Shown here: positions 3,001 through 44,179 of the stretch, piece after piece
Layout of the letters: every line of letters starts with the position of its first letter
How positions within the stretch are numbered: the first letter of the stretch is position 1
From: Candidatus Omnitrophota bacterium
GTDB lineage: Bacteria; Omnitrophota; Gorgyraeia; Gygaellales; JAQTUX01
Assembly: GCA_028707125.1 (NCBI GenBank)
Contig: JAQTUX010000001.1
Coordinates: 269,639-333,638 of the forward strand
Direction of reading: 5' to 3'
Length of the DNA stretch: 64,000 bases
Made by a program: the position numbers and the translations under genes
Notes under the pieces: model-generated
Told to the model about the DNA's origin: nothing
The model's input: only the letters and a program-made list of their open reading frames with translations
The model's database searches: none

Positions 3001-6000
3001 GCACTGCCACTCCTTCCCAGCTCCTGGACGTCAACGGCATTGCTAATGTGAACACGCTCTCCATAGGCGATACCACCGTTACATCCACTGCGGCAGAATT
3101 GAACATATTAGACGGCGTAACAGCCACCGCAACCGAGCTCAACTATGTTGACGGCGTAACATCAGCCATACAAACACAGCTGAACGCCAAGGTAGGTACA
3201 GCCACTTCATTCTCAGGAGACGTGACCGGCGCCTACAACGCCACAGTTGTCGGCAACGACTCCCACGACCACACCGCCTCAACCATCTCAGGGTTAGGCG
3301 TCTCTGACTTCACTTCAGCCGCCATCTCCCAGTGGACCAATGACTCCAACTTCATCACCGCTGCCTCTACCATCACTGGACTGATCCAGTCCACAGCCGC
3401 AGGCACAAGTTACATCACAGGCGGGGATGTAGGCATCGGGACTGCAGTGCCGGGAGAGAAACTTCATGTTTACAAAGAAAGTTTAACTGATAATAGTCAG
3501 GCAAAATTACTCAAGTTAGAAGGGAAGTTTAATGATGCTAGCATAGATAGCGATGATGTAATAGGAATTTCAGTAAAGGCGGTTAACTCTAGTGGGGGAT
3601 CCGGAGAGAATATGATTATTGGTGGCTCATGGGGAGGATCAGCGGTCAATACTTTATTAGCAGTAGATGGCGGCAACGTCGGCATCGGGACGACGGTGCC
3701 CGCGGCGAAATTGCATGTCTCGGCCCCGGCGGTTATTGCCGGCGGGTTTTATTCGGTCGCGGCAAATGACGCTGACGCGGATATCTGGGGTATTTCAACG
3801 ACCTATTATCCATCTCATGGAACAGCAGCCAACCAGTGGGGTATCAAGTGGCAGTCCACGCCGAACGCATTCTCTTTTGTGGGGAATGGCAGCGAGAAAT
3901 TAAACATCGATGTGGATACGGCAGGGCATATTTCGATGGTCGTGAACGGCGGCAACGTCGGCATCGGCTCAGCCGTGCCAGTTGCGAAACTTGATGTTGT
4001 CGGGACTGCCGAAGTGGACGGCCTCTCCATAGGCGGTACAGCAGTCACTCCCACCGCGGCTGAACTCAACTACGTTGACGGCGTAACCTCTGCCATACAG
4101 ACACAGCTTGACGCCAAGGTAGGCACAGCCACTTCGTTCTCAGGCGACGTGACCGGCGCCTACAACGCCACAGTTGTCGGCAACGACTCCCACGACCACA
4201 CTACCTCTACCATATCAGGGCTGGGTGTTGCTGACTTCTCCTCAGCCAACATCTCCCAGTGGACCAATGACTCCGGATATTTCAATACCAGTAACGACGG
4301 CGCAGGCAGCGGTTTGGACGCGGATATGGTGGATGGGTTGCATCCTACGCAATTCTTCAACGCCCACGGTCAGAATCACGGCACATATACGGACTTCAAT
4401 ACGCCTACAGATTTTGGATTTAGATACATTGTGGGTACCACAAACGGCCCTGGCATAGCCGGCGCAAGCCAATACTATAATCTTGGCATAGGGTTAGGTA
4501 ATGATTATGCCTATACAAGTTACGCTATGCAACTGGCGATTCCGAGAAACTTAAGCACTCCATATATATCTGTGAGATATAGAGAGAATGGAGCTTGGGG
4601 GTCGTGGTATAAGATTTATGCCGGATATGCTGATACCGCGGCCGCGCTTTCCAGCATGAACATCAGTCAGTTTACCAATAATTCCGGTTACTTTAATACT
4701 AGTAATGACGGCGCGGGAAGCGGCCTGGATGCTGACCTGCTGGACGGCCAAAGCAGCGCTTATTATATGACTGCCGCAACCGACAATTGGGTGAATACGA
4801 CCGGGGACACGATGAGCGGGAATCTGTATTTCAATAATTATGGGCTGGGAGTCATCGGCACCTATAGTGATATAAGATATCAGGGCGTATTTGCCATGGG
4901 CGATGCTTATAAGCTCGCTCTGGACGGTACGACATCAGGGACTTTATATGGCATTGCCTGGACCCATAGCAATATCGGAGGCCAATCCAAGGCGGGGTTA
5001 AGTCATCAGGCATTGTTTATGACAAATGGCGTGACTCAGACAGCAATAGGAACGGGTATATGGACGCTTGGCGGCTATACGCAAAGCGGGACAAGCACGA
5101 ATGCTTTTATGGGCAGCGTCGGCATCGGCACAGTGGCGCCGGGAGCGAAGCTGCATGTGACAAGCGCCAATACCGGAGCAGGGTTGTTGAGGTTGGATAA
5201 TACCGGTGGTTCAGCCGGGGATGTAAACGGGGTAGATTTTTATCATAATAACGGAACGTATTTACAGGCGTTTATACGCGATGAGATTCTGAGCAGCTGG
5301 CCCACGAAATTACATTTCGGCGTTGCCTCAACGAGCAACAACGCCGCGACAAAGATGACCATACAGGGGTCAAACGGCTACGTGGGCATCGGCACAGTGA
5401 GCCCGGCGGCGCATCTTCAGGTCGGCACAGGCACTCCCGGCTCTGCCACAGGCGCGGGCGACCTGTATGTGGCAAGCGACCTCGAGGTTGATTCCACCGC
5501 CTATCTTGACCTGGACGCGCGGGTAGGCCGCGACTTTATCGGCACAGCCGCCACTTCGTATATGTATATGACCGGCACGCTCACGGTTGACCTGGACAAC
5601 GACAACAATGGTACGGACAAGTTTTCTATAAGGGACGGCGGCAATACCGAGATATTCTACGTGAATGAAGATAACGGAGGCGGAGGCAATGTTGTGGCAA
5701 AGGGAGTCACCGAAGGCTCATACATAGGGTTATTCAAGGGCTTGGGTTCGCTTCCGGGCTACGGCTCCAGCCGTTATCCGACGCTGAAGACGGATTACTC
5801 CTACTTGTATTTCTCCGTTGCCGGCGCGTACTCCGCGTATATGGGCTCTAACGGCGTCCTGACCGCCCAATCCAGCCGCGAGAAGAAGGAGAACTTTAAG
5901 GAGCTTGACTTTGATAATGTCCTGGCAAAGATTGATAAAATGCCGGTTATGGAGTGGAACTACAAGAACGAAGAAGATTCCATAAAGCACATCGGCCCGT

Positions 6001-6179
6001 TTGCCGAGGATTTCCACGCGCTTTTCGGACTGAACGGCACCGATAATACAATGATCGGCCACAGCGACCCTCCGGGCGTTGCCCTCGCCGGCGTAAAAGG
6101 GCTGTATAGGAAGGTGAAGGAGCAGGAGAGGGTGATTGAAGAGCTGGAGACAAGGATAGCGGCGTTGGAGAAGAAGTAA
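3..6179 (+). CDS. Giant Thr/Gly/Ser-rich tail-fibre-like surface fibre protein, 5' end cut by the window edge
   Basis: The frame of the 129..6179 ORF stays open back to nt 3 (ELFTDDPGLSGAIGGGAATQESSGIYPPGQGWNTNGSQATVT then MYTTG). The module 'TMYxxGxY...R.Y.V.I' occurs at the first Met and again ~160 aa later, so the true start is probably upstream. Many copies of G(N/S)VGIGTxxPxxxLxV, ELN(F/Y)VDGVTSAIQTQL and GLDADxxDG motifs, as seen in phage tail-fibre-like proteins. I found no Cys in the 2016 aa shown. Confidence 0.85.
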   Translation, partial: ELFTDDPGLSGAIGGGAATQESSGIYPPGQGWNTNGSQATVTMYTTGTYASTAPQNRSYKVQIDTAGNTFSWWYMDDTTNWTNTVGGSAVAMSTNSAGTDLNAGVKVYFSAASGTANDSWYFSASNGTAYGGYDSYAQTAAYTAGETRIYKDGDPFSPYYNKMVFQSGATKVTLDQLAGTVATNATIYNPAIVGANSGGLTMYSSGSYTGSESRAYQVKISSQGVAGTSSDKFQFKYGVNDWGPVGGTSITGSQQSLGDGIFISFSESNYTNDGTITGGSSSNPDQWSFNVVAGSTSTSAGGWTDSGTDVYSSAVTDNVAIGTTVPGGYKLNVSGTANATTLTEGTNAVPNATDHLGFFAATTSAQLAGVLSDETGSGGVAVFATSPTIATPIISTSATVPLVIGGSATTSDLSLQTTSAAGEAGADMHFLVGNNGQTEAMTILNSGYVGIGSTVPTAALDINGNIQVSGTITGTVATAGGWTDAGTSMYPTNVDDNVAIGTTDPGSYDLNVAGTANMGTLSIGGTAVTASATELNFVDGVTSAIQTQLDSKSAASDTLTGLVQSTAAGTSYITGGSVGIGTTSPQYLLDVDKSATGNYIAHIKNSGTASYGLFIEAGTDTGDYIVSVASKTGSNKFVIRGDGNVGIGTVAPTALLDVNGTANVNTLSIGDTTITPTAAELNFVDGVTSAIQTQLDAKVGTSTAFIGDVTGAYNATVVGNDSHDHTASTISGLGVSDFTSAAISQWTNDSNFITAASTITGLIQSTAAGTSYITGGSVGIGTAVPGGKLDIYADQSTEYALVARNTADANQITHAFDASAGNALFRLWDVNGGLNVNLAASGNSYLNGGNVGIGTAVPGSALEVQGNVTLNDRLIMSGDSIGATVDTAYNTIKGAIGPTINGLTLTGALVDSNFSDDNANITNVYGLKIATAVTGQYTTTNAYGLYVDQPTGATNNYGAYINGNLIVSGTITGTVAAAGGWTDAGTSLYNTELTDKVGIGTATPSQLLDVNGIANVNTLSIGDTTVTSTAAELNILDGVTATATELNYVDGVTSAIQTQLNAKVGTATSFSGDVTGAYNATVVGNDSHDHTASTISGLGVSDFTSAAISQWTNDSNFITAASTITGLIQSTAAGTSYITGGDVGIGTAVPGEKLHVYKESLTDNSQAKLLKLEGKFNDASIDSDDVIGISVKAVNSSGGSGENMIIGGSWGGSAVNTLLAVDGGNVGIGTTVPAAKLHVSAPAVIAGGFYSVAANDADADIWGISTTYYPSHGTAANQWGIKWQSTPNAFSFVGNGSEKLNIDVDTAGHISMVVNGGNVGIGSAVPVAKLDVVGTAEVDGLSIGGTAVTPTAAELNYVDGVTSAIQTQLDAKVGTATSFSGDVTGAYNATVVGNDSHDHTTSTISGLGVADFSSANISQWTNDSGYFNTSNDGAGSGLDADMVDGLHPTQFFNAHGQNHGTYTDFNTPTDFGFRYIVGTTNGPGIAGASQYYNLGIGLGNDYAYTSYAMQLAIPRNLSTPYISVRYRENGAWGSWYKIYAGYADTAAALSSMNISQFTNNSGYFNTSNDGAGSGLDADLLDGQSSAYYMTAATDNWVNTTGDTMSGNLYFNNYGLGVIGTYSDIRYQGVFAMGDAYKLALDGTTSGTLYGIAWTHSNIGGQSKAGLSHQALFMTNGVTQTAIGTGIWTLGGYTQSGTSTNAFMGSVGIGTVAPGAKLHVTSANTGAGLLRLDNTGGSAGDVNGVDFYHNNGTYLQAFIRDEILSSWPTKLHFGVASTSNNAATKMTIQGSNGYVGIGTVSPAAHLQVGTGTPGSATGAGDLYVASDLEVDSTAYLDLDARVGRDFIGTAATSYMYMTGTLTVDLDNDNNGTDKFSIRDGGNTEIFYVNEDNGGGGNVVAKGVTEGSYIGLFKGLGSLPGYGSSRYPTLKTDYSYLYFSVAGAYSAYMGSNGVLTAQSSREKKENFKELDFDNVLAKIDKMPVMEWNYKNEEDSIKHIGPFAEDFHALFGLNGTDNTMIGHSDPPGVALAGVKGLYRKVKEQERVIEELETRIAALEKK
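2035..2345. repeat. Intragenic direct repeat copy A (~310 bp) in the fibre gene
   Basis: Encodes AAELNFVDGVTSAIQTQLDAKVGT..FIGDVTGAYNATVVGNDSHDHTASTISGLGVSDFTSAAISQWTNDSNFITAASTITGLIQSTAAGTSYITGG. The 48-nt run ccggcgcctacaacgccacagttgtcggcaacgactcccacgaccaca at 2131-2178 is identical in copies B and C. Confidence 0.9.
3135..3440. repeat. Intragenic direct repeat copy B
   Basis: Near-identical protein block (ELNYVDGVTSAIQTQLNAKVGTATSFSGDVTGAYNATVVGNDSHDHTAST...GLIQSTAAGTSYITGG). The identical 48-nt run lies at 3226-3273. Confidence 0.9.
4060..4270. repeat. Intragenic direct repeat copy C (shorter)
   Basis: ELNYVDGVTSAIQTQLDAKVGTATSFSGDVTGAYNATVVGNDSHDHTTSTISGLGVADFSSANISQWTNDS. The identical 48-nt run lies at 4153-4200. 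A more diverged partial copy is at ~1600-1740. Confidence 0.85.
5871..6176 (+). other. C-terminal intramolecular chaperone / autoproteolysis domain (peptidase S74, endosialidase-tailspike type)
   Basis: SSREKKENFKELDFDNVLAKIDKMPVMEWNYKNEEDSIKHIGPFAEDFHALFGL...GVALAGVKGLYRKVKEQERVIEELETRIAALEKK. It has the S-x-x-x-K-x-N start, the W.Y..E....H.G.IAQ-like core and a terminal coiled coil typical of this domain. Confidence 0.8.
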
Positions 6180-6187
6180 GACCAAAA

Positions 6188-6308
6188 GCGTATATCAGAT
6201 TATCAGTGTGTCAGTTAGAGTTTATCAGTTTATCAGAATATCAGAGAGAATGACCAATGTCCAATTTACCAATGACGAATGAAATCACAATGACTCAAAT
6301 CCCAAATA
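6188..6308. repeat. Left arm of a long imperfect inverted repeat built from TATCAG units
   Basis: Five TATCAG units (6193, 6201, 6223, 6231, 6239). 6188-6198 gcgtatatcag is the exact reverse complement of 6759-6769, and 6269-6283 ccaatgacgaatgaa is the exact reverse complement of 6677-6691. Confidence 0.8.
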
Positions 6309-6655
6309 GAAAGTATGATTTGCGGGAGAGAACTGCTAAATTTGGAGAAAACATAGTTAATTTCGCGAAGAGCATACCTGAAAATAGTGTGAATAGGCCA
6401 TTAATAAGTCAGCTAGTAAGGGCAGGTACGAGCGTAGGAGCTAATTATTGTGAAGCAGACGATGCCTCAACAAGGAAGGACTTCTTTTACAAAATTGGGA
6501 CCTGTAGGAGAGAATCAAAAGAGTCTAAGCATTGGCTTAGGATGATAACGACTGCTGTGCCTTCTTTGAAGGCTGAAGCCGAACTGTTCTTAAACGAGGC
6601 TCAAGAGTTAAATTTGATATTTTCCGCCATTATTAATAGGGCCGGAAAACGTTAA
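6257..6655 (+). CDS. Four-helix-bundle protein ('23S rRNA intervening-sequence protein' family); the true start may be the ATG at 6290
   Basis: YDLRERTAKFGENIVNFAKSIPENSVNRPLISQLVRAGTSVGANYCEADDASTRKDFFYKIGTCRRESKESKHWLRMI matches the family hallmarks (..QL.RA.TS.GAN..E......KDF..K......E..E...WL). The first 11 codons of the track ORF lie inside the left repeat arm. The region is visibly more AT-rich than its neighbours. Confidence 0.85.
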   Translation: MSNLPMTNEITMTQIPNRKYDLRERTAKFGENIVNFAKSIPENSVNRPLISQLVRAGTSVGANYCEADDASTRKDFFYKIGTCRRESKESKHWLRMITTAVPSLKAEAELFLNEAQELNLIFSAIINRAGKR

Positions 6656-6932: not shown

Positions 6933-7709
6933 ATGTCCGGTTATTTTCTGAGGCTAATCAAGGCGCGGCATATTCTGCGAAGCATGGTCCTGAAGAACTT
7001 GAAGGACAAATATGTCGGCTCAACACTGGGTATCTTCTGGGCGGTGATAAACCCCCTGTTGATCATGTCGGCCGTATCCTTTGTTTTCACTCAGGTGATG
7101 CAAACCCCGATACGGCGCTACCCGCTGCTGGTATTAAGCGCCTACCTTCCCTGGAATTTCTTCGTTAACTCCGCCACTGAAAGCGCCGCCTGCATAAGGC
7201 AGAATCAAGGCATACTCTCTCAATACACCATCCCCCGCGAGGCCATACCCGTATCAGTCGCGCTCGCCGATTTCCTGAACTTTTTATTCGGATTCGCGGC
7301 GATGCTGCCGATATTCATCTTCATGAACAGGGGGGCCGCGGGATGCCTGTGGCTGCTGCCTTTGGTAATGGCCCTGCATCTGGCATTCACCGTCGGGATC
7401 TCCTTATTGTTCAGCATCATCAATATATATTTCAGGGATTTTTCCCAGCTCCTGGGAGTGGGAATGCTGTTCTGGTTCTGGGTCACGCCGGTCTTCTACA
7501 CCCTGGAGATGATGCCTGCCGGCCTTCGCGGGGCATTCCTGGCCAACCCCGCCACATGCTATACGGTTATTTACAGGGAATTATTATATAACGGCCGCTG
7601 CGGCGGCATATCCATGTGGGTATTGGCCGTTATCTTCGCTTTGGCGAGTTTGGCGGGTGGATACATCTTATTTGCCGCCAAAGAAAAGGATATCCTCAAG
7701 CATATTTAG
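6933..7709 (+). CDS. wzm: ABC-2 type polysaccharide/polyol-phosphate export permease (Wzm/TagG-like)
   Basis: 258 aa with ~6 hydrophobic segments. The N-terminal LKNLKDKYVGSTLGIFWAVINPLL motif is typical of ABC-2 permeases. It sits immediately upstream of the cognate ATPase. Confidence 0.85.
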   Translation: MSGYFLRLIKARHILRSMVLKNLKDKYVGSTLGIFWAVINPLLIMSAVSFVFTQVMQTPIRRYPLLVLSAYLPWNFFVNSATESAACIRQNQGILSQYTIPREAIPVSVALADFLNFLFGFAAMLPIFIFMNRGAAGCLWLLPLVMALHLAFTVGISLLFSIINIYFRDFSQLLGVGMLFWFWVTPVFYTLEMMPAGLRGAFLANPATCYTVIYRELLYNGRCGGISMWVLAVIFALASLAGGYILFAAKEKDILKHI

Positions 7710-10421
7710 ATGATAACGCTGGAAGACGTTTGGCTGAAATACAGGATAGCGTTCAAGGAAGGCGCGAGGGCCGTTTGCGAGGATTTCTGGGCGCTTAAGG
7801 GCATAGACCTGAATGTCGGCAAGGGAGAGTGTTTCGCGGTCATCGGAGAGAACGGCTCAGGCAAGACCACGCTCCTGAGGGTGATCAGCGGCATGCTAAT
7901 GCCTGACAAGGGCAGGGTGCGCCTGGGAGGAAGGGTCGCCGGGCTTATGGAGATACAGGCCGGTTTCCATCCTGAACTGACCGGCAGGGAGAATATCTAC
8001 AATATCTCGGCGCTTTCAGGCCTGAGCGCCGATGAGACAGGCGCCTGTTACGCGGACATGGTTGAGTTTGCCGCCATCGGCAGGTTCATCAACGCCCCGG
8101 TAAAGACATACTCCCAGGGCATGCTTGTGCGCCTTGCCTTTGCCATAGCCATACACGCGCGCACCGACATATTGCTGGTTGACGACATATTCGCGGTAGG
8201 CGATATTTATGCCCGGCGCAAGTGCATTAATAAGATGTTTGAGCTGAAGGATAAGGGCCTGACCATTATTTTTGTTTCTCATGACCTGGATATTGCCAGG
8301 CGGCTGTGTAAAAGAGGCGTGCTGCTCAGGGAAGGCAGGGTTATCAGGGCCGGTTCAATAGACGGACTCGTCAGTTATTATCTTGAGACGGTAGGCAATA
8401 AGGAAGGTATAGCCCTGCTGCAAAAAGGGCGGCTGGCAATTATTTTTAATAACGGCAAGCTGATCATCAGGTGGAACGACTCCGCTCTTACCAAGGGCGC
8501 GGCCGGGCATACGGTGATGAGCTCTTCGGGCAGGACATATCAGTCAGATACCGCCTCCTGGATTATCCGGCAGCCGGCGGCAGCCGATGAGATCGTTGCC
8601 GTAGGCAGGTGGCCGGATATGCCGGCTGAGCTTATCTGGAAGATACGCTGCCGCGGCGAAAAGGAATTCAGCTGGGATGTAACTCTGCAGGCGCGCGCAC
8701 AGGCCCGGATAGAGGATTACACGGCCAGATTGATCCTGACCGACGAATACGAGGGCTGGTTTACATCGCAGGAGGAATACGTTTTTCCGGAGGCGTTCCT
8801 GCATGAGAACGAATGGCAGAGCCGCCGGATAGACGATCATCTTAACTGGCTGATAGGGTTAAAGACGGGAGCCGATAGCGGCGAAGGCCTGCCAACGCTT
8901 GTTTTAGACAGCTCAGGCGCGGATAAACAGGGCGCCTGCCAGATCGGCAATACCGGCATTGAGGCCTCTGCCAGAGGTATTCAGTTCAATTACGTTAATC
9001 CGGAACCAGAGCATGCCGCGGGCAGCTATAAGTTTTTTTCAACCGGCGTGAAGTTATTTGAGGAGCGGGACAGGCAGGATTTTGAATGTTATATGGCGCG
9101 GGCAAGGCAGGCCGGCAGGCGCAGGATCATCAGCCGCGGCCCGCTCGCCCTGTGTTGCGGGCAGCGCAAAATAGAGATTTTCCTGCGGGATGCGCTTTTA
9201 AGCAGCGGCGCGGGGCTGGATACGAAATTCATCTGGCAGGGCCGTACCTACAGCGCCGCCGGAGGTAACTGGTCCGTAGAAAAAGAAGGAGATAATTATC
9301 TTGTAGTTAATATCTTTTGGGGGCCCGAAGCGCCTTTTTTCCAGGTATGGAGAATGGAACTGCGGGATGAGTCCGCCATTTTCTGGCAGGCGGATATGGA
9401 AATAAGAGATGGGCTGGAGATCAGGAACAGGCAGGTTGAGCTTTTTCTCAGCGGCCGATATGACAGGTGGTTTACGCCTTCGGAAAACGGCGACTTTGGG
9501 GCAGTGGAAAAAAAAGGCAACACAGTCATACTAAGTAAATACATAAACGATTTTTCCGGCGTAGAACAGTCCTGCCTTATGCCGGCGGTTACCTTCGCCA
9601 ATCAAGACGGCCGCGCCAGAGTGTCGTATATTTCCCGGGGCCAGGACAAGGAATTAAATACGAAGCTGCATTATCTGGAGATAGATCCCGCCGCTGACGC
9701 GGCGCTTGAAGCAGGCAGGCACGCCTTTTTTAAGGGGGCCATAAGGATAGCGCCCAGGCAGGGACAAAAAGGCGTTGACGCGGTTGTCAATAATAACGGC
9801 GCGGCCGCGGCGATAAATTTTAACGGCGTTTCTCTGGATTTCAGGCACGGCAGGATGCGTCTTTTCTATGAAGGCGTTGAATTGACAAAAGGGCTGGGCC
9901 TTTACTCTGCGGTTTTGCATGAAGGCAACTGGCATGATTCTTCGCAGGGACTATGGAAGGTCGAGGCCTCGGACAGGGAAAGGTTCGTCGCCGTGGGCCG
10001 CTGGCCGTGGCTGCCTGTCAGGCAGGAATGGGAAGTAACGCTATTGGATGGCCGCGATATCATCTGGCGCATAACCAGGGATACCCGGGACGGCTTTGAT
10101 CCCGACAAGGAGCAGGTTAACCTGATGCTGTCGGATAATTACCGGGAGTGGTTTGTCCGGGAAAGGGCGCGGGGAAGGTTTCCCGAAGAGTTTGCCGAGC
10201 ATACCCGCGGCGGGTTCTGGGAGCGGTTATGGTCGGCGGCAGCGCAGTCGCCGGTCGGCGCCAAAGGGCCTGGGCTGCCGTCTGTCCTCCTGGACTGTTC
10301 AGAGAGCCCGGTTCCCGGCCGCCTGTGCATTGAGAACACGGACGCGTTATTCAAGGCCAGGGTCCTGCAGTGCGAATCGGCGCAGCAAAAACATTTTAGC
10401 GGAAAGATAAAGATATGCTGA
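7710..10421 (+). CDS. wzt: ABC exporter ATP-binding protein (Wzt/TagH-like) with a ~670-aa C-terminal extension made of three copies of an unassigned module
   Basis: Walker A GENGSGKTT, signature-like YSQGMLVRLAFA, Walker B ILLVDDIFAVGD, H-loop VSHD within aa 1-230. The ATG abuts the stop of the permease gene. The extension (nt ~8400-10418) has three ~200-aa repeats at ~8415-9075, ~9125-9760 and ~9805-10418. Confidence 0.9.
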   Translation: MITLEDVWLKYRIAFKEGARAVCEDFWALKGIDLNVGKGECFAVIGENGSGKTTLLRVISGMLMPDKGRVRLGGRVAGLMEIQAGFHPELTGRENIYNISALSGLSADETGACYADMVEFAAIGRFINAPVKTYSQGMLVRLAFAIAIHARTDILLVDDIFAVGDIYARRKCINKMFELKDKGLTIIFVSHDLDIARRLCKRGVLLREGRVIRAGSIDGLVSYYLETVGNKEGIALLQKGRLAIIFNNGKLIIRWNDSALTKGAAGHTVMSSSGRTYQSDTASWIIRQPAAADEIVAVGRWPDMPAELIWKIRCRGEKEFSWDVTLQARAQARIEDYTARLILTDEYEGWFTSQEEYVFPEAFLHENEWQSRRIDDHLNWLIGLKTGADSGEGLPTLVLDSSGADKQGACQIGNTGIEASARGIQFNYVNPEPEHAAGSYKFFSTGVKLFEERDRQDFECYMARARQAGRRRIISRGPLALCCGQRKIEIFLRDALLSSGAGLDTKFIWQGRTYSAAGGNWSVEKEGDNYLVVNIFWGPEAPFFQVWRMELRDESAIFWQADMEIRDGLEIRNRQVELFLSGRYDRWFTPSENGDFGAVEKKGNTVILSKYINDFSGVEQSCLMPAVTFANQDGRARVSYISRGQDKELNTKLHYLEIDPAADAALEAGRHAFFKGAIRIAPRQGQKGVDAVVNNNGAAAAINFNGVSLDFRHGRMRLFYEGVELTKGLGLYSAVLHEGNWHDSSQGLWKVEASDRERFVAVGRWPWLPVRQEWEVTLLDGRDIIWRITRDTRDGFDPDKEQVNLMLSDNYREWFVRERARGRFPEEFAEHTRGGFWERLWSAAAQSPVGAKGPGLPSVLLDCSESPVPGRLCIENTDALFKARVLQCESAQQKHFSGKIKIC

Positions 10422-13400
10422 AGGGCCTTTTATTTAATAACAGGAACAGGCGCGCGATAGAACGCGCCGGCATAAAAATAGATATTGATGAAGAGCGCCG
10501 CTTCAGGATCTACCATAACGGCAGCGAGCTCAGCAAGCTGCAGGGCATGCGCGTCTGTTTGTTTTCAGAGGGCAGATGGCACTATTTTCCCGCCAAAGAC
10601 AGTATCTTGAAGATAAGCAGGCCCGATGAAACCAGTTTTAGTTTGCGGCTTTACAATAGAACGCTGCCTGTTGTCCTGCATTGGGGAATGGAGCTGGGTG
10701 AGGGCAGCCGGTTGAAATGGAGCGTGGAATTAGAGCTAAAGGGGCCCATACGGCTGGATGCCGTGAAGGCCGTAGTGCTCCTCAGCCGTTCCTATAAAAG
10801 CTGGTTCTCTTATTCCGGCGCTAAAGAGGGCCTGTTCGCTGATAGCGCCGGAGAATTCCGGCAGGAGATCGGTATTGCCGATTCTGATTTTTTAAGCATT
10901 GGCGCGGACAGGCCGGAAATTGCCACGCTGCTGTTAAGGGCGGTTGATTCGCCTTTAAATGTTTCTTTGTGTAACACGGATGATCTGTCTTCCTCGCGTG
11001 AAGTTGATCTCTGCTGCAACGGGCAGAAGGAATTTTATGCCCCCGGCAGGCACTCTTGTTTTCAGGCGGTTATTGAACTCTGCGGGGATAAGTCCGCAGT
11101 AGAAAATATCATTCAGGATGTAAAAGGCAGAAAGAGGCGCGAAGAAGAAGAGGCGCTGCGTAAAAAGGAAGAGGAGCGCCTGGCGGAAGAAGAACAGCGC
11201 CGGCTAGAGGAAGAACGCCTGCGCCAGGAGGAACAAAGGCGCCTGGAAGAAGAGCGCCGAAAACAGGAAGAGCTCAAGCGCCTGGAAGAAGAGCGCCTGA
11301 GAATTGAGCGCGCGCGGGACCGGCAGCGGCGCACGCTTGAGGCGGGTGATTTCAGGATTTATTTTGACTACAATAACCGTTTCCATTTCTACCACAGGAA
11401 TGAGGAGTTTACCAAGGCGCATGGCCTGCATACGGGTATATTTTCAGAGGGCCGCTGGTATGGTTCGGCGGATTCAGAGGCCGCTATAGAGAATAGTGAG
11501 CCGGGTAGATTAAGGATCAATTTCAGGCACAGACATCTGCCCGTTATTCAATCCTGGGACCTGCGGTTAGATTCCGCGGGAGTAATCAGGTGGAGCGTTG
11601 ATATGCGGCTTGAGCAGCCGTTAAGGATAGAGCGCAGGAACGCCTGCCTGTTTTTGTCCCGCGCCTATGACAGGTGGCTTGCGCCTCCGGACGCGGGGGC
11701 GTTCCCCGCGGCATTCGGCCTGCAATGGCAGATGGCCAGCCCTTCGGAGAGCAGGCCGGGCTTTATAGGGCTGACGTCCGGGATGAAGCAGCTGCCGGGC
11801 ATAACATTAAAGGGCTCCGAAGACGGCGGCCGCCTGGCTGTTCATAACGCGGATATGGATGTCTCATCCCGCGTCCTTGAGGAGCGTTTTGAAGAGCGCG
11901 TAGAGTTTTACAAGGCAGGCGATTACTCTTTCTCGCGGGCGGTCATCCGGCTTTATAATGATAACGCGGCCATCGAGGGCGCGTTCAAAGAGGCGGAAGA
12001 AAAAGAGAACGCGCTCAGAGAGTTGCGCAAAGAGCGGCTGAGGCGCGCCGCCGGGCTAAGGCAGGGGAGAAAAGAATTTGAGGGGCTGCGCCTGCGCCCC
12101 GCGGCCTCGCGCGTCGTTATTTACGGCGATTCCCAGGGCCTGCACGATAAGATCAGCGGCGAGGCAGGCGGTTTTAACAGGGCCGTAGCGTGCATTAAGG
12201 CAGAAAGCGGCACAGCCGCGGTAGGTATCTCACGGTTTAATTTCTTCAAGATCCATGAGGTCGTCCAGTTCATCTCTACTTTGAGGAACGCGCGGATCGA
12301 TACGCGCCCTGTCTGCCTGCCGCTGTTTCCGGCAAGCGGTATTTACTCCAGTTTTCTTAATTACATAAAGGAGATCAAATCTCTCGTCGCAGGAAAGGGC
12401 ATCGAACTTTTCTTAAAAGACGTTGATCTGCTCAAACTCCTGCAGGCTGTGTCTTCGCAGTCCAATAGAGATAACGAGAGGGACCTGCTGCGGCTTCTGG
12501 GGCTGATAGCCGAGCATCCCTTTATCGGGCCGCAGACGCTGGTCCTCGACACAACGCATAAATGCAATACAAACTGCGCCCATTGCTGGATACACAACCC
12601 CCGCAGCAAGACGCCCCCCGCCGTGCTCGAATCAAAGATGGACGACCGCCTGTACAGGAAGATCATTGACGACGCGGCAGCCATTTTGAGCGACGAGGTC
12701 ATAATACAGGGCGACGGAGAGCCGCTTCTGGACGACCGCTTTATCGAGATGGCGCGTTACGCCAGGGACAAGGGGTTAAAGGTCCTGTTCTTTACCAACG
12801 GCATACTCCTGGATGAGGCGACGGCTAAATGCCTGATAGACCTGGAGGTCAATGAGATATTCTGCAGCCTGCCCGCCGGGACCGACCTGACCTACAGCTG
12901 GATAAATTCGCGGCAGTCAAAAGACACCTTCCACAGGATCGTCGGCAATCTGAAAAACCTGATCTCCCTGAGGAACGGCTCGGGCAGGCCCCTGCCGCTT
13001 TTGCAGATGACCCACGTGATACACAATATGAATTGCCATGAGATCGAGCAGATGTCCGCTGTTGACGCGGACATAGGCGCGGACAGGGCACGCTTCTACC
13101 TGGCCCGCCTTGACGAGAACATCGCGCATTTAAAGATACTATCTTCACAGGTAGAGGCGCTAAAGGCATCCCTGCGGAAGGCCGCCGCGTTGCTTAAAGA
13201 AAGCAAAATAGACCTGCAGGACAATATTTTTTTCCAGCTGGACAATTATCAGCCGGAGACCGGTTACTGGTCGCAGGGCCGTTTTCTTGAAACGGGCTGC
13301 CCGGTGGGGTGGTTTTTCGCGCTGATATTGGCTGGAGGAGAATTGAGCATGTGCTGCCATATGCGGGTGGTCGGGCGCCTGGGGGAAAGATCGCTGAGGG

Positions 13401-13588
13401 AGGCGTGGAATTCCCGGGAATACAACGATTACAGGGTCAAGGCCAAACATATGCGGGACAATATGGACGCGCGTTTCTCAAACGGCGTCAAGCTTTACGA
13501 TGATTTCTGCAATCATTGCGATACGCATCAGGTGATCTTAAGGATAAACGGCCTGCTGGAGCGATACGGGCTGAAGAAATTCTTATAA
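10415..13588 (+). CDS. Multidomain radical-SAM protein: two copies of the Wzt-extension module, an E/R coiled coil, a linker domain and a C-terminal rSAM/SPASM-like catalytic domain
   Basis: CX3CX2C at 12563-12586 (HKCNTNCAHCW), GDGEPLL, and C-terminal Cys motifs GELSMCC...CNHCDTH. The modules lie at ~10472-11085 and ~11336-11965. The gene overlaps the wzt stop by 7 nt. Confidence 0.8.
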   Translation: MLKGLLFNNRNRRAIERAGIKIDIDEERRFRIYHNGSELSKLQGMRVCLFSEGRWHYFPAKDSILKISRPDETSFSLRLYNRTLPVVLHWGMELGEGSRLKWSVELELKGPIRLDAVKAVVLLSRSYKSWFSYSGAKEGLFADSAGEFRQEIGIADSDFLSIGADRPEIATLLLRAVDSPLNVSLCNTDDLSSSREVDLCCNGQKEFYAPGRHSCFQAVIELCGDKSAVENIIQDVKGRKRREEEEALRKKEEERLAEEEQRRLEEERLRQEEQRRLEEERRKQEELKRLEEERLRIERARDRQRRTLEAGDFRIYFDYNNRFHFYHRNEEFTKAHGLHTGIFSEGRWYGSADSEAAIENSEPGRLRINFRHRHLPVIQSWDLRLDSAGVIRWSVDMRLEQPLRIERRNACLFLSRAYDRWLAPPDAGAFPAAFGLQWQMASPSESRPGFIGLTSGMKQLPGITLKGSEDGGRLAVHNADMDVSSRVLEERFEERVEFYKAGDYSFSRAVIRLYNDNAAIEGAFKEAEEKENALRELRKERLRRAAGLRQGRKEFEGLRLRPAASRVVIYGDSQGLHDKISGEAGGFNRAVACIKAESGTAAVGISRFNFFKIHEVVQFISTLRNARIDTRPVCLPLFPASGIYSSFLNYIKEIKSLVAGKGIELFLKDVDLLKLLQAVSSQSNRDNERDLLRLLGLIAEHPFIGPQTLVLDTTHKCNTNCAHCWIHNPRSKTPPAVLESKMDDRLYRKIIDDAAAILSDEVIIQGDGEPLLDDRFIEMARYARDKGLKVLFFTNGILLDEATAKCLIDLEVNEIFCSLPAGTDLTYSWINSRQSKDTFHRIVGNLKNLISLRNGSGRPLPLLQMTHVIHNMNCHEIEQMSAVDADIGADRARFYLARLDENIAHLKILSSQVEALKASLRKAAALLKESKIDLQDNIFFQLDNYQPETGYWSQGRFLETGCPVGWFFALILAGGELSMCCHMRVVGRLGERSLREAWNSREYNDYRVKAKHMRDNMDARFSNGVKLYDDFCNHCDTHQVILRINGLLERYGLKKFL
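11125..11335 (+). other. Highly charged E/R/K/L heptad-like coiled-coil segment (~70 aa)
   Basis: RKRREEEEALRKKEEERLAEEEQRRLEEERLRQEEQRRLEEERRKQEELKRLEEERLRIERARDRQRR, with internal repeats of (E)EQRRLEEER(L/R)R. Confidence 0.8.
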
Positions 13589-13593
13589 AAGAT

Positions 13594-15798
13594 ATGAAGA
13601 TATCATTGGTAAATCTGCCCTGGAGGAGTTTTGGCAGGGAGGGGGTGAGGGCTGGTTCCCGCTGGCCGCATTTGAAGGCCCGCTCGGAGAAAGAATATCT
13701 GCCTTTCCCCTTTTTTCTCGCCTACGCGGCGGCGCTGCTTAAAAAGAACGGATTTAACGCGCGGCTCATTGACGCCATCGCCAGCGGCCTGTCTTACAGG
13801 CGGTTTTCGCGCCGGATGCGCTCCAGCCGCCCCGACATCCTGGTCTGCGAGACGTCCACGGTGACCCTCAAGCATGACTTGCGGGTCCTGAAGGGCCTGG
13901 GGAGCAAGGCGGAGATCATCCTTTGCGGCCCGGATGTCAATATCCGCCGGCCGGATTTTCTCAGGGAGAACGGATTTATAAAATATGTGCTGTCCGGAGA
14001 ATATGAATTTACGCTCCTTGAACTGCTGCAGCATCTTGATGAGGGCCGCGGCCTTGATGAGGTAAAGGGGATCATATACCGCTCTAACGGCGGCGTGAAG
14101 ATCAATCCCGCGCGGCCCCTGGTTGACCTGGACCGCCTGCCCTGGCCTCTGCGCGAAGGCCTGCCGATGTCGCGTTACAACGATGCCCCGGGAGACATAC
14201 CCATACCGTCGGTGCAGATGATGGCCTCACGCGGCTGCCCGTTTCGCTGCAAGTTCTGCCTCTGGCCGCAGGTGATGTATCAGGGCAGCCATTACAGGGC
14301 CAGGAGCGTCGTGGACGTCGTTGATGAAATGGAATACCTGGTCAGGAATTCGGGATACAGGTCGGTCTATTTTGACGACGATACCTTTAACTGCGGCAAA
14401 GAAAGGATGCTCGGCCTCTGCGCTGAGATCAAGAAGAGGGGCCTGAATATCTTCTGGGCGATAATGGCAAGGGCCGACCTGATGGATGAGGAGATCCTGG
14501 TGAATATGAAAGAGGCGGGGTTGTTTGCCGTCAAATACGGCGTGGAATCCGCCGATAACTCCCTGTTGGACAATATCAATAAGGGTATGTCGCTTGAAAA
14601 AACAGAGGCCGTCATCAAGATGACCAGGGCGCTGGGCATCAAGACCCACCTGACCTTTACCCTGGGCCTTCCGGGAGAGACCAGGCAGACCATAAAAAAG
14701 ACGGTTGATTTCGCCTTAAAGGCCGATCCGGAATCGCTTCAGTTTTCCCTGGCTACGCCGTTTCCGGGAACGGAGTTCTACAGGGAGATGAAGGAGAACG
14801 GCCGGATAATCTCCGCTGATTGGGCAAGATACGATGGAAGCCGCAGCAGCGCGCTCGCCTATGACGATCTCTCCGCGGGCGAGCTTGAGCGCGCCATGAG
14901 GTCGGCTTACAGGCGGTGGGCAATGCACCGTTTGAAAAGGGCCCGTTTTGACCGATTGGGGCTAAAGGCGTATTGCCGCTATTCCCTTGTCAATTCAATA
15001 AATAGCAACGGAATTGTCATGACCGCTTATAAGGTTTCGCGGTTTGCTTTCAGGTACGCGCTTATGCACGTGAGGGAGGCGTTGGTGTCCTCGCCCCGTA
15101 AGATTGAAAACATCGCGCGGGAAAAGGGGTTGAAACTGGGAAGGATGTCCCTGGTCCCGGACGGCCGCGGCCTGAGTTTGTTCTGGGGCGGCCTCAAGTT
15201 GACCCGCGGACGCGGATTTTACAGCTTTCTAAATTTTGAAGGCGCGGATAACGGCAGCGACGGCGCGCTTAAATGGGACACGCAGAGGCCGGACGCGGGC
15301 AGCATTATATTGAGGCGCCTGTATGACGGCGCCGGCATTGAGGAGATATGGAAGATAACCGCGCTGGATGAAAAGCAGATCGGCTGGGACGTGGATATTG
15401 AAATAAAAAAAGAGACGGGTGTGCGGCAGGAAGATATCGGCCTGGCGCTTACGCGCAAATACCGCAAGTGGATAGAAGAATGGGGCGAGGGCAGGTTTCC
15501 CCCTTTGAACGATTACCGCGAAGTTGAGCTCAGGAACGCGCGCAGCGCCGTTGTCGGCGTAAGGGGCAGGAGGGCATTGAGGAATACTCTGCCCACGGTC
15601 CTGCTTGACCTGTCCGCCGGCAATAACGGTTTTCTCCCGTCGGTAGGGAACTCGGCAGAAGGGCATCACGGCCGCCTGCTCGGGGTCAGGCTCGCGCGAG
15701 GGGCCCGCGTCCGCAGATACGCCGCCGGAAGGCACAGGTTGTTGTCGGCCAGGATAAAGATAGTGGAAGAGGATTTCGCGAAGGGCGGGCGAAGATGA
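13594..15798 (+). CDS. B12-binding-domain (class B-like) radical-SAM protein with one C-terminal copy of the Wzt-extension module
   Basis: The ATG at 13594 (MKISLVNLPW) is preferred to the track start at 13516, which overlaps the upstream gene. Rossmann-like N-terminal domain (DILVCETST...IILCGPD...VLSGEYE), ASRGCPFRCKFCLWP, and a module at ~15150-15790 (LSLFWGGLKLTRGRGFY...LPTVLLDLS). Confidence 0.85.
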   Translation: MKISLVNLPWRSFGREGVRAGSRWPHLKARSEKEYLPFPFFLAYAAALLKKNGFNARLIDAIASGLSYRRFSRRMRSSRPDILVCETSTVTLKHDLRVLKGLGSKAEIILCGPDVNIRRPDFLRENGFIKYVLSGEYEFTLLELLQHLDEGRGLDEVKGIIYRSNGGVKINPARPLVDLDRLPWPLREGLPMSRYNDAPGDIPIPSVQMMASRGCPFRCKFCLWPQVMYQGSHYRARSVVDVVDEMEYLVRNSGYRSVYFDDDTFNCGKERMLGLCAEIKKRGLNIFWAIMARADLMDEEILVNMKEAGLFAVKYGVESADNSLLDNINKGMSLEKTEAVIKMTRALGIKTHLTFTLGLPGETRQTIKKTVDFALKADPESLQFSLATPFPGTEFYREMKENGRIISADWARYDGSRSSALAYDDLSAGELERAMRSAYRRWAMHRLKRARFDRLGLKAYCRYSLVNSINSNGIVMTAYKVSRFAFRYALMHVREALVSSPRKIENIAREKGLKLGRMSLVPDGRGLSLFWGGLKLTRGRGFYSFLNFEGADNGSDGALKWDTQRPDAGSIILRRLYDGAGIEEIWKITALDEKQIGWDVDIEIKKETGVRQEDIGLALTRKYRKWIEEWGEGRFPPLNDYREVELRNARSAVVGVRGRRALRNTLPTVLLDLSAGNNGFLPSVGNSAEGHHGRLLGVRLARGARVRRYAAGRHRLLSARIKIVEEDFAKGGRR

Positions 15799-18169: not shown

Positions 18170-19176
18170 TCGTGAAGCCGAAATTCTGCTGCGTGGCGGC
18201 TACGGATTACTGTATGCTGCGCTGTAAAATGTGCAATAAATGGCAGGAGAGGTCCCCCCGGCCCGACGAGGTCCCTTCCCTGGATGAGTGGAAGAACTTT
18301 ATCGCCGCTTTCAGGGAGCTGGTGGACGAGGGTTTTGAGATGGATTTCGGCGGCGGCGAGGCGTTGTCGCTGCCGGGCATCCTGGAACTTGTAAAATTCG
18401 CCAAGGGCAGGGGCTTCCGTACCACCCTTGCCTCCAATGGCTATCTTATAGATAAAGAGATGTCCAGAAGGATAGCCGACTCCGGCCTTGATGCGGTCAG
18501 CCTGTCTCTGGACAGCCCTTATCCTGAAGTCCACGATAAGATGCGCGGCGTAGAAGGTGTTTATCAGCGCGTAATGGCCGCGCTGGATAATCTCTCTTTA
18601 TATTCCCCTTCAACCAGAAAGGGCCTTTGCTGCATAATTATGAATGAAAATATGGACAGTTTGATACGGCTGGCTGATATGGCTGATAAAGACCCCCGCG
18701 TTGACTGGCTTTATTTTATGTCGGTGGTCCAGCCCAATTACAGCGGCCCGCTGGACAGCGCCTGGCGCGATGAATACAGCTATCTTTGGCCGCGGGATAC
18801 CAGGCGGCTGCAAGACATAATAGATGAGTTGATACGCAGGAAGGCTGACGGCTCAAAGGTGAGCAACCGGCCCGAGCACCTGCGCGCCTACAAGGCCTAT
18901 TTCGCCGACCCAAAGACGTTTGTGAACAAGGCGAAGTGTATCGTGGGCGGGGCGGCGATAAGTGTGAATACCTACGGCTTCATTCAGCTTTGTTTTTTCA
19001 TGGATTTTATCGGCAACATCAGGAAGGATGATATCCGCAAACTCTGGTATTCTCAGGGCGCGGAGTCGGTAAGAGGCAAGGTAGGCGCCTGCAAGGCCAA
19101 TTGCCATCTGCTTCTTAATTGCTGTTATATAGAAGACGATCCCGAGTTATATTCCGTAAATAATGAAAGCCGTTAG
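18166..19176 (+). CDS. SPASM/twitch-type radical-SAM paralog P2 (closest to P1)
   Basis: FCCVAATDYCMLRCKMCNKW, GGGEAL, SNGYLIDKEMSRRIADSGL, KCIVGGAAISVNTYGFIQLC, IGNIR, CKANCHLLLNCCYIEDD. Shares a ~35-nt near-identical stretch with P1 (agggagctggtggacgaggg.tttgagat.gat). Confidence 0.85.
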   Translation: MIVKPKFCCVAATDYCMLRCKMCNKWQERSPRPDEVPSLDEWKNFIAAFRELVDEGFEMDFGGGEALSLPGILELVKFAKGRGFRTTLASNGYLIDKEMSRRIADSGLDAVSLSLDSPYPEVHDKMRGVEGVYQRVMAALDNLSLYSPSTRKGLCCIIMNENMDSLIRLADMADKDPRVDWLYFMSVVQPNYSGPLDSAWRDEYSYLWPRDTRRLQDIIDELIRRKADGSKVSNRPEHLRAYKAYFADPKTFVNKAKCIVGGAAISVNTYGFIQLCFFMDFIGNIRKDDIRKLWYSQGAESVRGKVGACKANCHLLLNCCYIEDDPELYSVNNESR

Positions 19177-20449
19177 ATTCTGGCTTGTGTCGCTATTTGC
19201 CGCCGCCGTATTGCTGGAGGCGGTATTAAGGGTTTCCGGGTCCGCGTATGCCGGGGCTCATTGGTTGAGGCAGGGCCTGTCAAGAGGCAGCCAGGGCAGG
19301 CCTTTTACCGTACTTTGCCTTGGTGATTCTTTTACCTTCGGCGTAGGCGCCGCCGCCAAAGACAGCTATCCGGCGCAATTGCAGCGGATGCTGCAGGGCA
19401 ACGGAGAGAAAGGATTCCTGATAATTAACGGCGGACGGCTGGCGAATACTTCTTCTCTGCTCCTGGAAAATCTGCGCTCCGACCTGGATACTTACAGGCC
19501 GGACTTGCTGGTGATCATGGTCGGCTGTAATAATTATTGGAATCTCCGCGGCAGCAGCTATTTCCATCTCAAGGGCGAAGGCGCGGGATTCCGGCAGAAA
19601 CTGGACAGCGTAATGAGCAACCTGCGTTTCTACCAGGCATGTAAGATAGGTTATTTGAATCTGAAGTCAAGATTGAATAACCGGCGCAGGCAGCCGGATA
19701 TTGCCGGCGTCCCCGATATGAAGGCGCGGCGGATAGACCCTGACGCTGACCGGCTGGTGGTGGAAGCGCAGAAGCTATACGAAACAGGCGAGTACGCGCT
19801 TTCAAGAGAAAAGTTGGACGAGGCGCTGGCGAGGGACGAATTCAGCCACCGCGCCCATTTCTTGTCGGCCATGCTGCTGAATATAGAAGGCAATGATACG
19901 GCGGCAAGGGATGAGCTCTGGCGGTCTCTTCAGGCGGCCAGGGAAACCGGCGAATGGGACGGCGGTTTCTTTTGCAATATTATTAATATTTGTTTACGGA
20001 TTGAGAAAGACATCCCCGCGCAGCGAAGGCAGTTGTCAAAGATGAGGGAGTTCGCGGCGCTGCACGCGCCGCCCGATAAGAAACAGGATATCCTTTCGCT
20101 CTTGGACGCGAAGGCAGGGCTGTTGGATGATAATAGCGATATGTATGAGGTCGCGAGGTTTGATATCGGACGGGTCGCCGGCCTGGCAAGGCAGCGTGGC
20201 TGCGCGGTCATACTCCAGACATACCCGGCAAAAAGCGATCTGAATTCAATGTTAAGACGGGTGAGCAAAGAATACGGCCTTGTTCTGGCAGATAATGAAT
20301 TATTCTTTGAAGAGAGAGGCAGAGAAGGCCCGTTAGGGGATCTTTTCGTGGCTGACGGCCACTGTTCAGCTGCCGGGTATAATTTGATCGCCGCAAACGT
20401 CTACGCGGCATTAGCCGATAATGGCTATATCAAAAATGCGAAAAGATAA
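19163..20449 (+). CDS. Membrane-anchored SGNH/GDSL-like hydrolase or acyl-esterase with an inserted TPR-like helical region (SGNH-TPR 1)
   Basis: N-terminal anchor MKAVRFWLVSLFAAAVLL. Block I VLCLGDSFTFGVG, block II INGGRLANTS, block III LLVIMVGCNNYWN, block V FVADGHCSAAGYNLIA. A ~200-aa helical insert sits between blocks III and V. Confidence 0.7.
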   Translation: MKAVRFWLVSLFAAAVLLEAVLRVSGSAYAGAHWLRQGLSRGSQGRPFTVLCLGDSFTFGVGAAAKDSYPAQLQRMLQGNGEKGFLIINGGRLANTSSLLLENLRSDLDTYRPDLLVIMVGCNNYWNLRGSSYFHLKGEGAGFRQKLDSVMSNLRFYQACKIGYLNLKSRLNNRRRQPDIAGVPDMKARRIDPDADRLVVEAQKLYETGEYALSREKLDEALARDEFSHRAHFLSAMLLNIEGNDTAARDELWRSLQAARETGEWDGGFFCNIINICLRIEKDIPAQRRQLSKMREFAALHAPPDKKQDILSLLDAKAGLLDDNSDMYEVARFDIGRVAGLARQRGCAVILQTYPAKSDLNSMLRRVSKEYGLVLADNELFFEERGREGPLGDLFVADGHCSAAGYNLIAANVYAALADNGYIKNAKR

Positions 20450-44177: not shown

Positions 44178-44179
44178 CA

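Follow-up and report, generated by a model that had tools for sequence, protein, structure and literature searches.

How does an ATP-binding cassette (ABC) exporter recognise its glycan when its ATPase carries, at the position of the known carbohydrate-binding domain (CBD), a tail of repeated domains that it shares with radical S-adenosylmethionine (rSAM) enzymes? The question is raised by a 64,000-nucleotide stretch of DNA, hereafter the window, from a Candidatus Omnitrophota bacterium (GenBank assembly GCA_028707125.1, contig JAQTUX010000001.1, positions 269,639 to 333,638 of the forward strand), in which the + strand carries every gene. Omnitrophota are mostly uncultured, host-dependent nanobacteria. 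A preliminary description, made from the sequence alone, had pointed to six similar segments of no assigned family in three neighbouring proteins: the ABC ATPase Wzt (903 residues; gene at 7710-10421), an rSAM/SPASM protein of 1057 residues (gene at 10415-13588) and a B12-binding rSAM (B12-rSAM) protein. We found that these segments are copies of one module of about 215 residues, which occurs exactly six times: three times in the tail of Wzt, twice in the 1057-residue protein and once in the B12-rSAM protein.

Six copies of one module and the family to which they belong

When the three proteins were compared with one another by BLASTP, the copies gave pairwise identities of 21-28% over roughly 100-230 residues (30-68 bits), and a MAFFT alignment of all six, about 215 columns in length, contained invariant residues at G, W, W, L, Y, W and F. 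As a control, each copy was scored against a hidden Markov model (HMM) built from the other five. The sixth copy reached 105-140 bits in this test, far above the maximum of 6.8 bits obtained with 500 shuffles of the same sequence. By these three comparisons the proposed homology of the six segments is borne out. Their positions had been given correctly to within a few tens of bases, and the landmark motifs by which they were noticed (ELTKG.G, W.V or W.I, Y..WF, and LPT or LPS) correspond to conserved columns of the wider family (T32, G36, W80, Y117, W120 and P160). No seventh copy was found in the six frames of the window with either the six-copy HMM or an HMM of 369 family members. In Wzt the modules begin at residue 230, straight after the nucleotide-binding domain (NBD; residues 1-229).

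An AlphaFold2 model of the module, computed from the six-sequence alignment with copy 1 as its first sequence, is confidently all-beta, with about 19 strands (pLDDT 83.2, pTM 0.84). The predicted fold is a galactose-mutarotase-like beta supersandwich. Structural matches, with concordant results from Foldseek, are the supersandwich domains of GH97, GH38, GH36, GH2 and GH94 enzymes and of polysaccharide lyases, and they also include OpgG, the P1 domain of YidC, an NDH subunit and the minor capsid protein of PBCV-1. Carbohydrate-active proteins form the majority of these structural neighbours, and the galactose-mutarotase-like fold is linked overwhelmingly, not exclusively, to carbohydrate handling.

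Searches of sequence libraries gave no relative of known family. Neither Pfam (E<=0.1) nor NCBIfam (E<=0.01) had a match over any module copy, and with no model in either collection the module does not fall into a described family of the galactose-mutarotase clan. In particular, Wzt_C (PF14524) was matched by none of the three proteins in the hmmscan search against Pfam at E<=0.1, and a module profile run against all Protein Data Bank (PDB) sequences, a library that included the full-length A. aeolicus Wzt chains 8dku and 7k2t, returned 0 matches at E<=10. The classical Wzt CBD has a jelly-roll fold and forms dimers in which C-terminal strands are swapped (PMC9445017), an architecture that the module, as modelled, does not show. 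The HMM-to-sequence tests, together with the predicted fold, set the module apart from Wzt_C. The initial view that it is a relative of the characterised Wzt CBD therefore had to be given up, for want of a PF14524 match and of a PDB sequence match and in view of a predicted supersandwich in place of a jelly-roll. What remains of that view is a module with a probable link to carbohydrates, in that its predicted fold is mostly that of carbohydrate-active proteins and it occupies the site where characterised Wzt proteins carry their CBD.

An exhaustive profile search covering 1.84 billion representative proteins recovered 635 family members at E<=1e-3 (524 at <=1e-10 and 268 at <=1e-30), and all 11 of the 11 clusters with a taxon name were Omnitrophota. 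Word-indexed homology searching returned zero matches for the six-module alignment and, for the Wzt tail, only the tail itself and one relative of 54% identity, because the family is too divergent for 5-mer seeding; no 7-mer is shared among the 369 modules inspected, and no stretch of 7-10 columns is conserved enough. When the Wzt tail served as the query for related loci, one Omnitrophota locus was found.

Carrier architectures were counted on the best 150 of the 635 family members. About 86 of these consist of an ABC NBD followed by 2-7 modules, with copy numbers of 2, 3, 4 and 5 in 19, 41, 13 and 12 proteins, respectively, plus one protein that has eight by the family profile. About 50 are module-only proteins, probably gene fragments for the most part, and about 16 are fusions to rSAM domains of the SPASM and B12 types, in which the modules are N-terminal, C-terminal or both. 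Three single chains unite an ABC NBD, modules and rSAM/SPASM: P0007 (NBD, five modules, rSAM), P0105 (NBD, two modules, rSAM; present in three independent assemblies) and one more. Nine proteins had a long unexplained N-terminus, which turned out to be a GT-C glycosyltransferase (PMT_2/PMT) in eight and a member of the sulfatase family in the ninth. The sulfatase-family carrier has an N-terminal signal anchor and two C-terminal modules (10001-12376 in L010/L011), and the module therefore also works outside the cytoplasm. Four glycan-related carrier classes, on both sides of the membrane, bear the module. The locus of the sulfatase-family carrier further contains PAPS_reduct-family and GTP_EFTU-family genes, which we take to be CysD/CysN-like sulfate activation genes, along with a second sulfatase-family gene, glycosyltransferase genes and rSAM/SPASM genes; a gene set of this kind is a hint that some Omnitrophota have sulfated or phospho-substituted glycans.

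To compare the classes of module, a consensus of 16 residues (T32, G36, W47, D49, S50, W55, Q78, W80, W92, Y117, W120, F129, P160, N177, D179 and R185) was drawn from 369 modules; the same modules were then scored against it, though the classes are similar in size. The last module of Wzt keeps 14-15 of the 16 residues at any copy number and rSAM-borne modules keep about 13, compared with 9-12 in the internal Wzt copies. The conserved polar residues are retained in the last Wzt modules, in rSAM-borne modules and, less uniformly, in GT-C-borne modules. By contrast, the internal Wzt copies have decayed. In the C-terminal copy of Wzt the polar and aromatic set comprises T, D, S, Q, N, D and R, five Trp and a single Tyr. 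In a count made on the sequences, the columns conserved at >=60% in the 369 modules include neither His nor Glu. The pattern of retained and lost residues fits one functional site per array, accompanied by partly decayed spacer copies.

Nearest-neighbour analysis placed the Wzt modules closest to same-position modules of other Wzt proteins. For the two modules of the 1057-residue protein, the nearest neighbours were one another and the modules borne by other proteins of the module-module-rSAM type; for the B12-rSAM module they were mixed, both B12-rSAM-borne and Wzt-borne. Because the Wzt modules group by position and those of the 1057-residue protein with other rSAM-borne modules, the Wzt-borne and SPASM-rSAM-borne modules are, judged by sequence, old and distinct subfamilies. 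Within the window, the best BLASTP pairs join the first Wzt module to the B12-rSAM module, the third to the first module of the 1057-residue protein and the second to the second module of that protein. Specific partnerships between Wzt modules and rSAM modules were considered and rejected, since the nearest-neighbour grouping makes such pairing not meaningful.

Table. Module copies and other features of the three module-bearing proteins and of Wzm, with positions counted from the first letter of the window
Feature	Position	Residues	Strand	Evidence and remarks
Module copy 1	8397..9068	Wzt 230-453	+	HMM domain; leave-one-out 124.5 bits; 11/16 consensus residues
Module copy 2	9108..9758	Wzt 467-683	+	HMM domain; leave-one-out 104.6 bits; 10/16 consensus residues
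Module copy 3 (Wzt C-terminal, best-conserved)	9792..10418	Wzt 695-903	+	HMM domain; leave-one-out 117.7 bits; 16/16 consensus residues
Module copy 4	10436..11092	1057-residue protein 8-226	+	HMM domain; leave-one-out 114.7 bits; 10/16 consensus residues
Module copy 5	11315..11983	1057-residue protein 301-523	+	HMM domain; leave-one-out 139.7 bits; 14/16 consensus residues
Module copy 6 (B12-rSAM C-terminus)	15109..15771	532-752 of the 760-residue open reading frame (ORF)	+	HMM domain; leave-one-out 105.1 bits; 12/16 consensus residues
E/R/K-rich linker between copies 4 and 5	11093..11314	1057-residue protein 227-300	+	65% E, R or K
Conserved unassigned alpha/beta extension, N-terminal to the rSAM core	12032..12550	1057-residue protein 540-712	+	
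Radical-SAM core and SPASM, 1057-residue protein	12551..13588		+	Pfam Radical_SAM, residues 713-849 (2.6e-12); SPASM, residues 962-1013 (3.8e-07)
B12-binding radical-SAM catalytic part	13594..15108		+	Pfam Radical_SAM 3.7e-23; B12-binding 1.2e-4
Wzm, ABC-2 permease	6933..7709		+	Pfam ABC2_membrane 1e-10; nearest solved chain A. aeolicus Wzm (6oih/6m96), E 2e-23
Wzt NBD	7710..8396	1-229 of the 903-residue ABC ATPase	+	Pfam ABC_tran 3.4e-18

Linkage of the exporter to module-bearing rSAM proteins

The genes for Wzm and Wzt abut at 7709/7710. The solved chains nearest to the Wzt NBD are those of A. aeolicus Wzt (1.3e-59), followed by TarH/TagH (TarH 5.9e-47), and its top NCBIfam models are TagH and Wzt/RfbE, all under their cut-offs; for the two proteins as a pair, the solved relatives next in line after those of A. 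aeolicus are TarGH/TagGH. Because the nearest solved relatives of the two proteins are the Wzm and Wzt of A. aeolicus, the pair can be taken as a genuine WzmWzt-type exporter (type V, ABC-2). It lies in a locus for lipid-linked glycan assembly.

In other loci we found a recurrent order of Wzm, module-tailed Wzt, module-bearing rSAM gene and rSAM array, so that the co-occurrence of the module with wzt and rSAM genes extends beyond the window. Loci L002, L004 and L005 have, after a module-tailed Wzt, an ORF that bears a module or an rSAM protein, and L003 and L008 are related. L005, from another Omnitrophota metagenome-assembled genome, encodes Wzm, a three-module Wzt, an rSAM/SPASM protein, a module-module-B12-rSAM protein, further rSAM genes, a fusion of tetratricopeptide repeats (TPR) to rSAM, and a GDSL protein. 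A three-module Wzt is also encoded in L002 and L004, where the next ORF starts with a module and is interrupted by the contig end. Two adjacent module-bearing rSAM proteins lie inside a cluster of rSAM, glycosyltransferase and PMT_2 genes in L003; in L008, glycosyltransferases, Wzm and a Wzt with eight modules are followed by rSAM genes that lack the module. In L009, the order is Wzm, the P0105 fusion and an rSAM array, the fusion standing exactly where the window has one gene for Wzt and another for a module-rSAM protein. Because of the fusion proteins and the conserved gene order, the rSAM enzymes are likely to be functionally coupled to the exporter.

The 1057-residue protein has a further recurrent trait. 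ER/K-rich linkers of 26-149 residues occupy the same position in five other proteins of the module-module-rSAM(SPASM) type. The composition of the linker indicates that it is probably a single stiff alpha-helix, and linkers of this kind may act as spacers of variable length. For the B12-rSAM protein, the top NCBIfam match is HpnJ (7.8e-81, 272 bits, under the 577-bit cut-off). Its start is placed at ATG 13594 by the gene call on an independent assembly (L001) and at TTG 13516 by the mechanical ORF; ATG 13594 lies 6 nucleotides past the upstream stop, TTG 13516 would overlap the preceding gene by 73 nucleotides, and the shorter product of 734 residues is more likely.

Possible functions of the module and comparison with known systems

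We lean slightly towards the module being a new non-catalytic glycan- or glycolipid-binding domain that takes the place of the classical CBD and, in addition, directs tailoring enzymes to the polymer, because of its position after the NBD, its carbohydrate-associated fold, its carriers, its conserved polar and aromatic residues and its tandem repetition. The Wzt tail would take hold of the lipid-linked polymer, finished or tailored, on the cytoplasmic side and hand it to the WzmWzt channel. On rSAM, GT-C and sulfatase-family enzymes the module would keep the catalytic domain on the polymer, in the manner of an appended carbohydrate-binding module (CBM). We infer that the ligand is a glycan, that one polymer is bound by exporter and enzymes alike and that rSAM tailoring is coupled to export. 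Several points weigh against this interpretation. The exporter and the 1057-residue protein carry modules of separate old subfamilies, whose epitopes may differ; the supersandwich has non-carbohydrate uses among the matches, in YidC P1, the PBCV-1 minor capsid protein and the NDH subunit; the rSAM genes beside the eight-module Wzt of L008 carry no module; and rSAM/SPASM enzymes are best known as peptide maturases, which leaves a glycan as only the putative substrate of the rSAM array.

The preliminary description had seen in the module a common handle that recruits exporter and rSAM enzymes to the capped non-reducing terminus of one polymer. The fusions and the range of carriers do tie the module to glycan processing and the rSAM enzymes to the exporter, but old, separate subfamilies need not share an epitope, and nothing points to recognition of a capped terminus. 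The sharing of the module had also been called direct evidence that the rSAM enzymes act on the exported glycan. This was too strong, and the support that gene order and fusion proteins lend to such action is circumstantial. A more far-reaching proposal is that a phylum-specific module provides shared docking, by which the rSAM battery is coupled to WzmWzt, tailoring gates export and the C-terminal copy serves as the checkpoint. The tandem Wzt modules would then read the tailored polymer, and some lineages would have gone as far as a single ABC-module-rSAM polypeptide. We consider this proposal unlikely.

The main competitor of glycan binding is that the module is an element of protein-protein assembly (module to module or module to NBD, within an export-tailoring complex) or a rigid spacer that sets distance. 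Such a role would accommodate a Wzt copy number of 2 to 8 with internal copies that have lost consensus residues, as a spacer would, as well as ER/K-rich linkers that range from 26 to 149 residues between two modules; the ABC-module-rSAM fusions show that the exporter-enzyme linkage is under selection, and in YidC P1, the virus capsid protein and the NDH subunit the fold serves structure or protein binding. The C-terminal soluble domain of GT-C enzymes is normally periplasmic, however, and neither the C-terminal modules of these enzymes nor those of the signal-anchored sulfatase could touch a cytoplasmic Wzt tail. In addition, polar residues are conserved in the terminal and enzyme-borne copies, and the modules of Wzt and of the 1057-residue protein form old separate clades, not co-varying partners. 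We therefore hold an assembly or spacer role to be improbable.

Somewhat less probable again is that the module binds the polyprenyl-pyrophosphate end of the carrier, or else a peptide or protein on which the rSAM/SPASM enzymes act. The same conserved residues are found on very different carriers, which fits an invariant ligand such as the lipid pyrophosphate better than variable glycan epitopes, and YidC P1 is among the structural matches. A peptide ligand would suit SPASM proteins, which, to judge by the nearest NCBIfam families, are as a rule peptide maturases; a small precursor-peptide gene was nevertheless not noticed by the rSAM array, where no systematic search for one was made. Fusion of the module to GT-C and sulfatase-family enzymes, its placement in glycan-assembly loci and its mostly carbohydrate-active structural neighbours argue for a glycan instead. 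That the module is itself catalytic, with a mutarotase- or epimerase-like or a glycan-cleaving activity on the polymer, appears very unlikely. Mutarotases use His/Glu catalysis and measure 290-340 residues; the module has 215 residues at 4-9% identity to them, and neither His nor Glu is among its family-conserved columns. It has zero Pfam or NCBIfam match, hence no aldose-epimerase model, and arrays whose internal copies have decayed are what one typically sees in tandem repeats for binding or spacing and not in enzymes.

To our knowledge, the structurally and biochemically characterised substrate-recognition domains on O-antigen-type ABC exporters all belong to one jelly-roll family. Like this Wzt_C CBD (PF14524; E. 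coli O9a, R. terrigena/K. pneumoniae O12, A. aeolicus), the module on Wzt lies directly after the NBD, is cytoplasmic and all-beta, and presumably picks out the lipid-linked glycan that is to be exported. Unlike it, the module has no sequence kinship with that family and is a predicted supersandwich of about 215 residues; it is present in 2-8 tandem copies per chain, as opposed to one, it is borne by enzymes as well, and its recognition of a cap is only putative. Known relatives by fold are aldose 1-epimerases (3NRE, 3MWX), accessory domains of GH2, GH36, GH38, GH94 and GH97 enzymes and of polysaccharide lyases, YidC P1, and OpgG/OpgD. Compared with galactose-mutarotase-like domains, the module shows 4-13% identity, is shorter than the catalytic mutarotases and is without a conserved His or Glu.

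Two further systems invite comparison. The K. pneumoniae O7 terminator ORF6 carries a single predicted Ig-like CBM and is the only terminator enzyme known to have such a domain (PMC11231755). That CBM and the module are both putative binding modules on an enzyme that modifies a WzmWzt-exported polymer; whereas the ORF6 CBM is Ig-like, single and not common to the exporter, here one family extends across exporter, rSAM, GT-C and sulfatase-family enzymes. In E. coli O9a, the coiled-coil of WbdD is a 'molecular ruler' that sets O-antigen chain length (PMC3482155). WbdD and the 1057-residue protein may be likened, by analogy only, in having an extended helical element between domains of a glycan-tailoring enzyme of an ABC-dependent pathway, but here the element is an E/R/K segment, probably a single helix and not a coiled-coil, between two putative binding modules of an rSAM enzyme. 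The module would be a functional analogue of the Wzt CBD and of enzyme-appended CBMs while being a member of neither family.

In the literature searched, we found no description of a repeated, portable supersandwich module on an ABC ATPase and rSAM enzymes, no report of CBM-type modules common to Wzt and tailoring enzymes, and nothing relevant that connects Wzt carbohydrate binding with radical SAM, or radical SAM with O-antigen ABC export; a preprint on Omnitrophota genomes touches on polysaccharide cassettes and radical SAM only in passing. The putative substrate-recognition tail of a glycan ABC exporter, shared with tailoring enzymes, is a new domain family. If it binds glycan, it would add a second, unrelated solution to recognition on O-antigen-type ABC exporters, namely tandem supersandwich modules, and would be a candidate new CBM family for glycobiologists. 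Coupling of the rSAM battery to export, if true, would mean that ABC-dependent glycan export has a recognition logic of a new kind and that large rSAM/SPASM arrays have a new class of substrate; for these arrays the locus offers a testable case of tailoring a lipid-linked surface glycan rather than peptides. Defining the family would also improve the annotation of many Omnitrophota proteins that are labelled only as ABC ATPase or radical SAM.

The rSAM array and the surroundings of the exporter

From the 1057-residue protein onwards, about 20 rSAM genes form an uninterrupted and unusually long run at 10415-41636, co-oriented with Wzm/Wzt and the glycosyltransferases. Most members are rSAM+SPASM paralogues of about 330 residues; two TPR-rSAM fusions (28478 and 34348) and a second B12-rSAM gene (30564) lie among them. 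More rSAM genes occur further downstream (52144-53067, 54154-55731 and 60711-62890), and comparable arrays are found in loci L003, L005, L008 and L009.

Downstream of the exporter and of this run, the same strand carries glycan-assembly genes for a GT4 glycosyltransferase, a Wzy_C+TPR protein, two GT2 enzymes, another GT4 enzyme, an initiating sugar-phosphate transferase (Bac_transf) and a PMT_2 protein. The genes after Bac_transf also include DUF362, more rSAM genes, a methyltransferase and a peptidase U32. The Wzy_C+TPR protein (821 residues, 44096-46561) combines a Wzy_C domain of the O-antigen ligase or O-oligosaccharyltransferase type with numerous TPR repeats. Its presence in addition to WzmWzt suggests that the glycan, once exported, is joined to a lipid core or a protein on the outer side of the membrane.

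Directly upstream of the exporter, a Gly/Thr/Ser/Ala-rich protein of 2016 residues (129-6179) has long internal repeats, such as TAAELNFVDGVTSAIQTQLDAKVGT, and a C-terminal Peptidase_S74 intramolecular-chaperone domain (2e-9). Its architecture is that of a phage tail-fibre or an endosialidase-like surface fibre, and it could be a target of glycosylation. A small gene of the four-helix '23S rRNA-intervening-sequence protein' family (PF05635, 1.5e-11) lies at 6257-6655, between the fibre-like gene and wzm. Four paralogues that combine a GDSL/SGNH-hydrolase with TPR are dispersed in the rSAM array (19163-20449, 32047-33357, 41614-42825 and 59398-60798), and the related locus L005 likewise has a GDSL gene; these proteins may be O-acyl transferases or esterases for the polymer.

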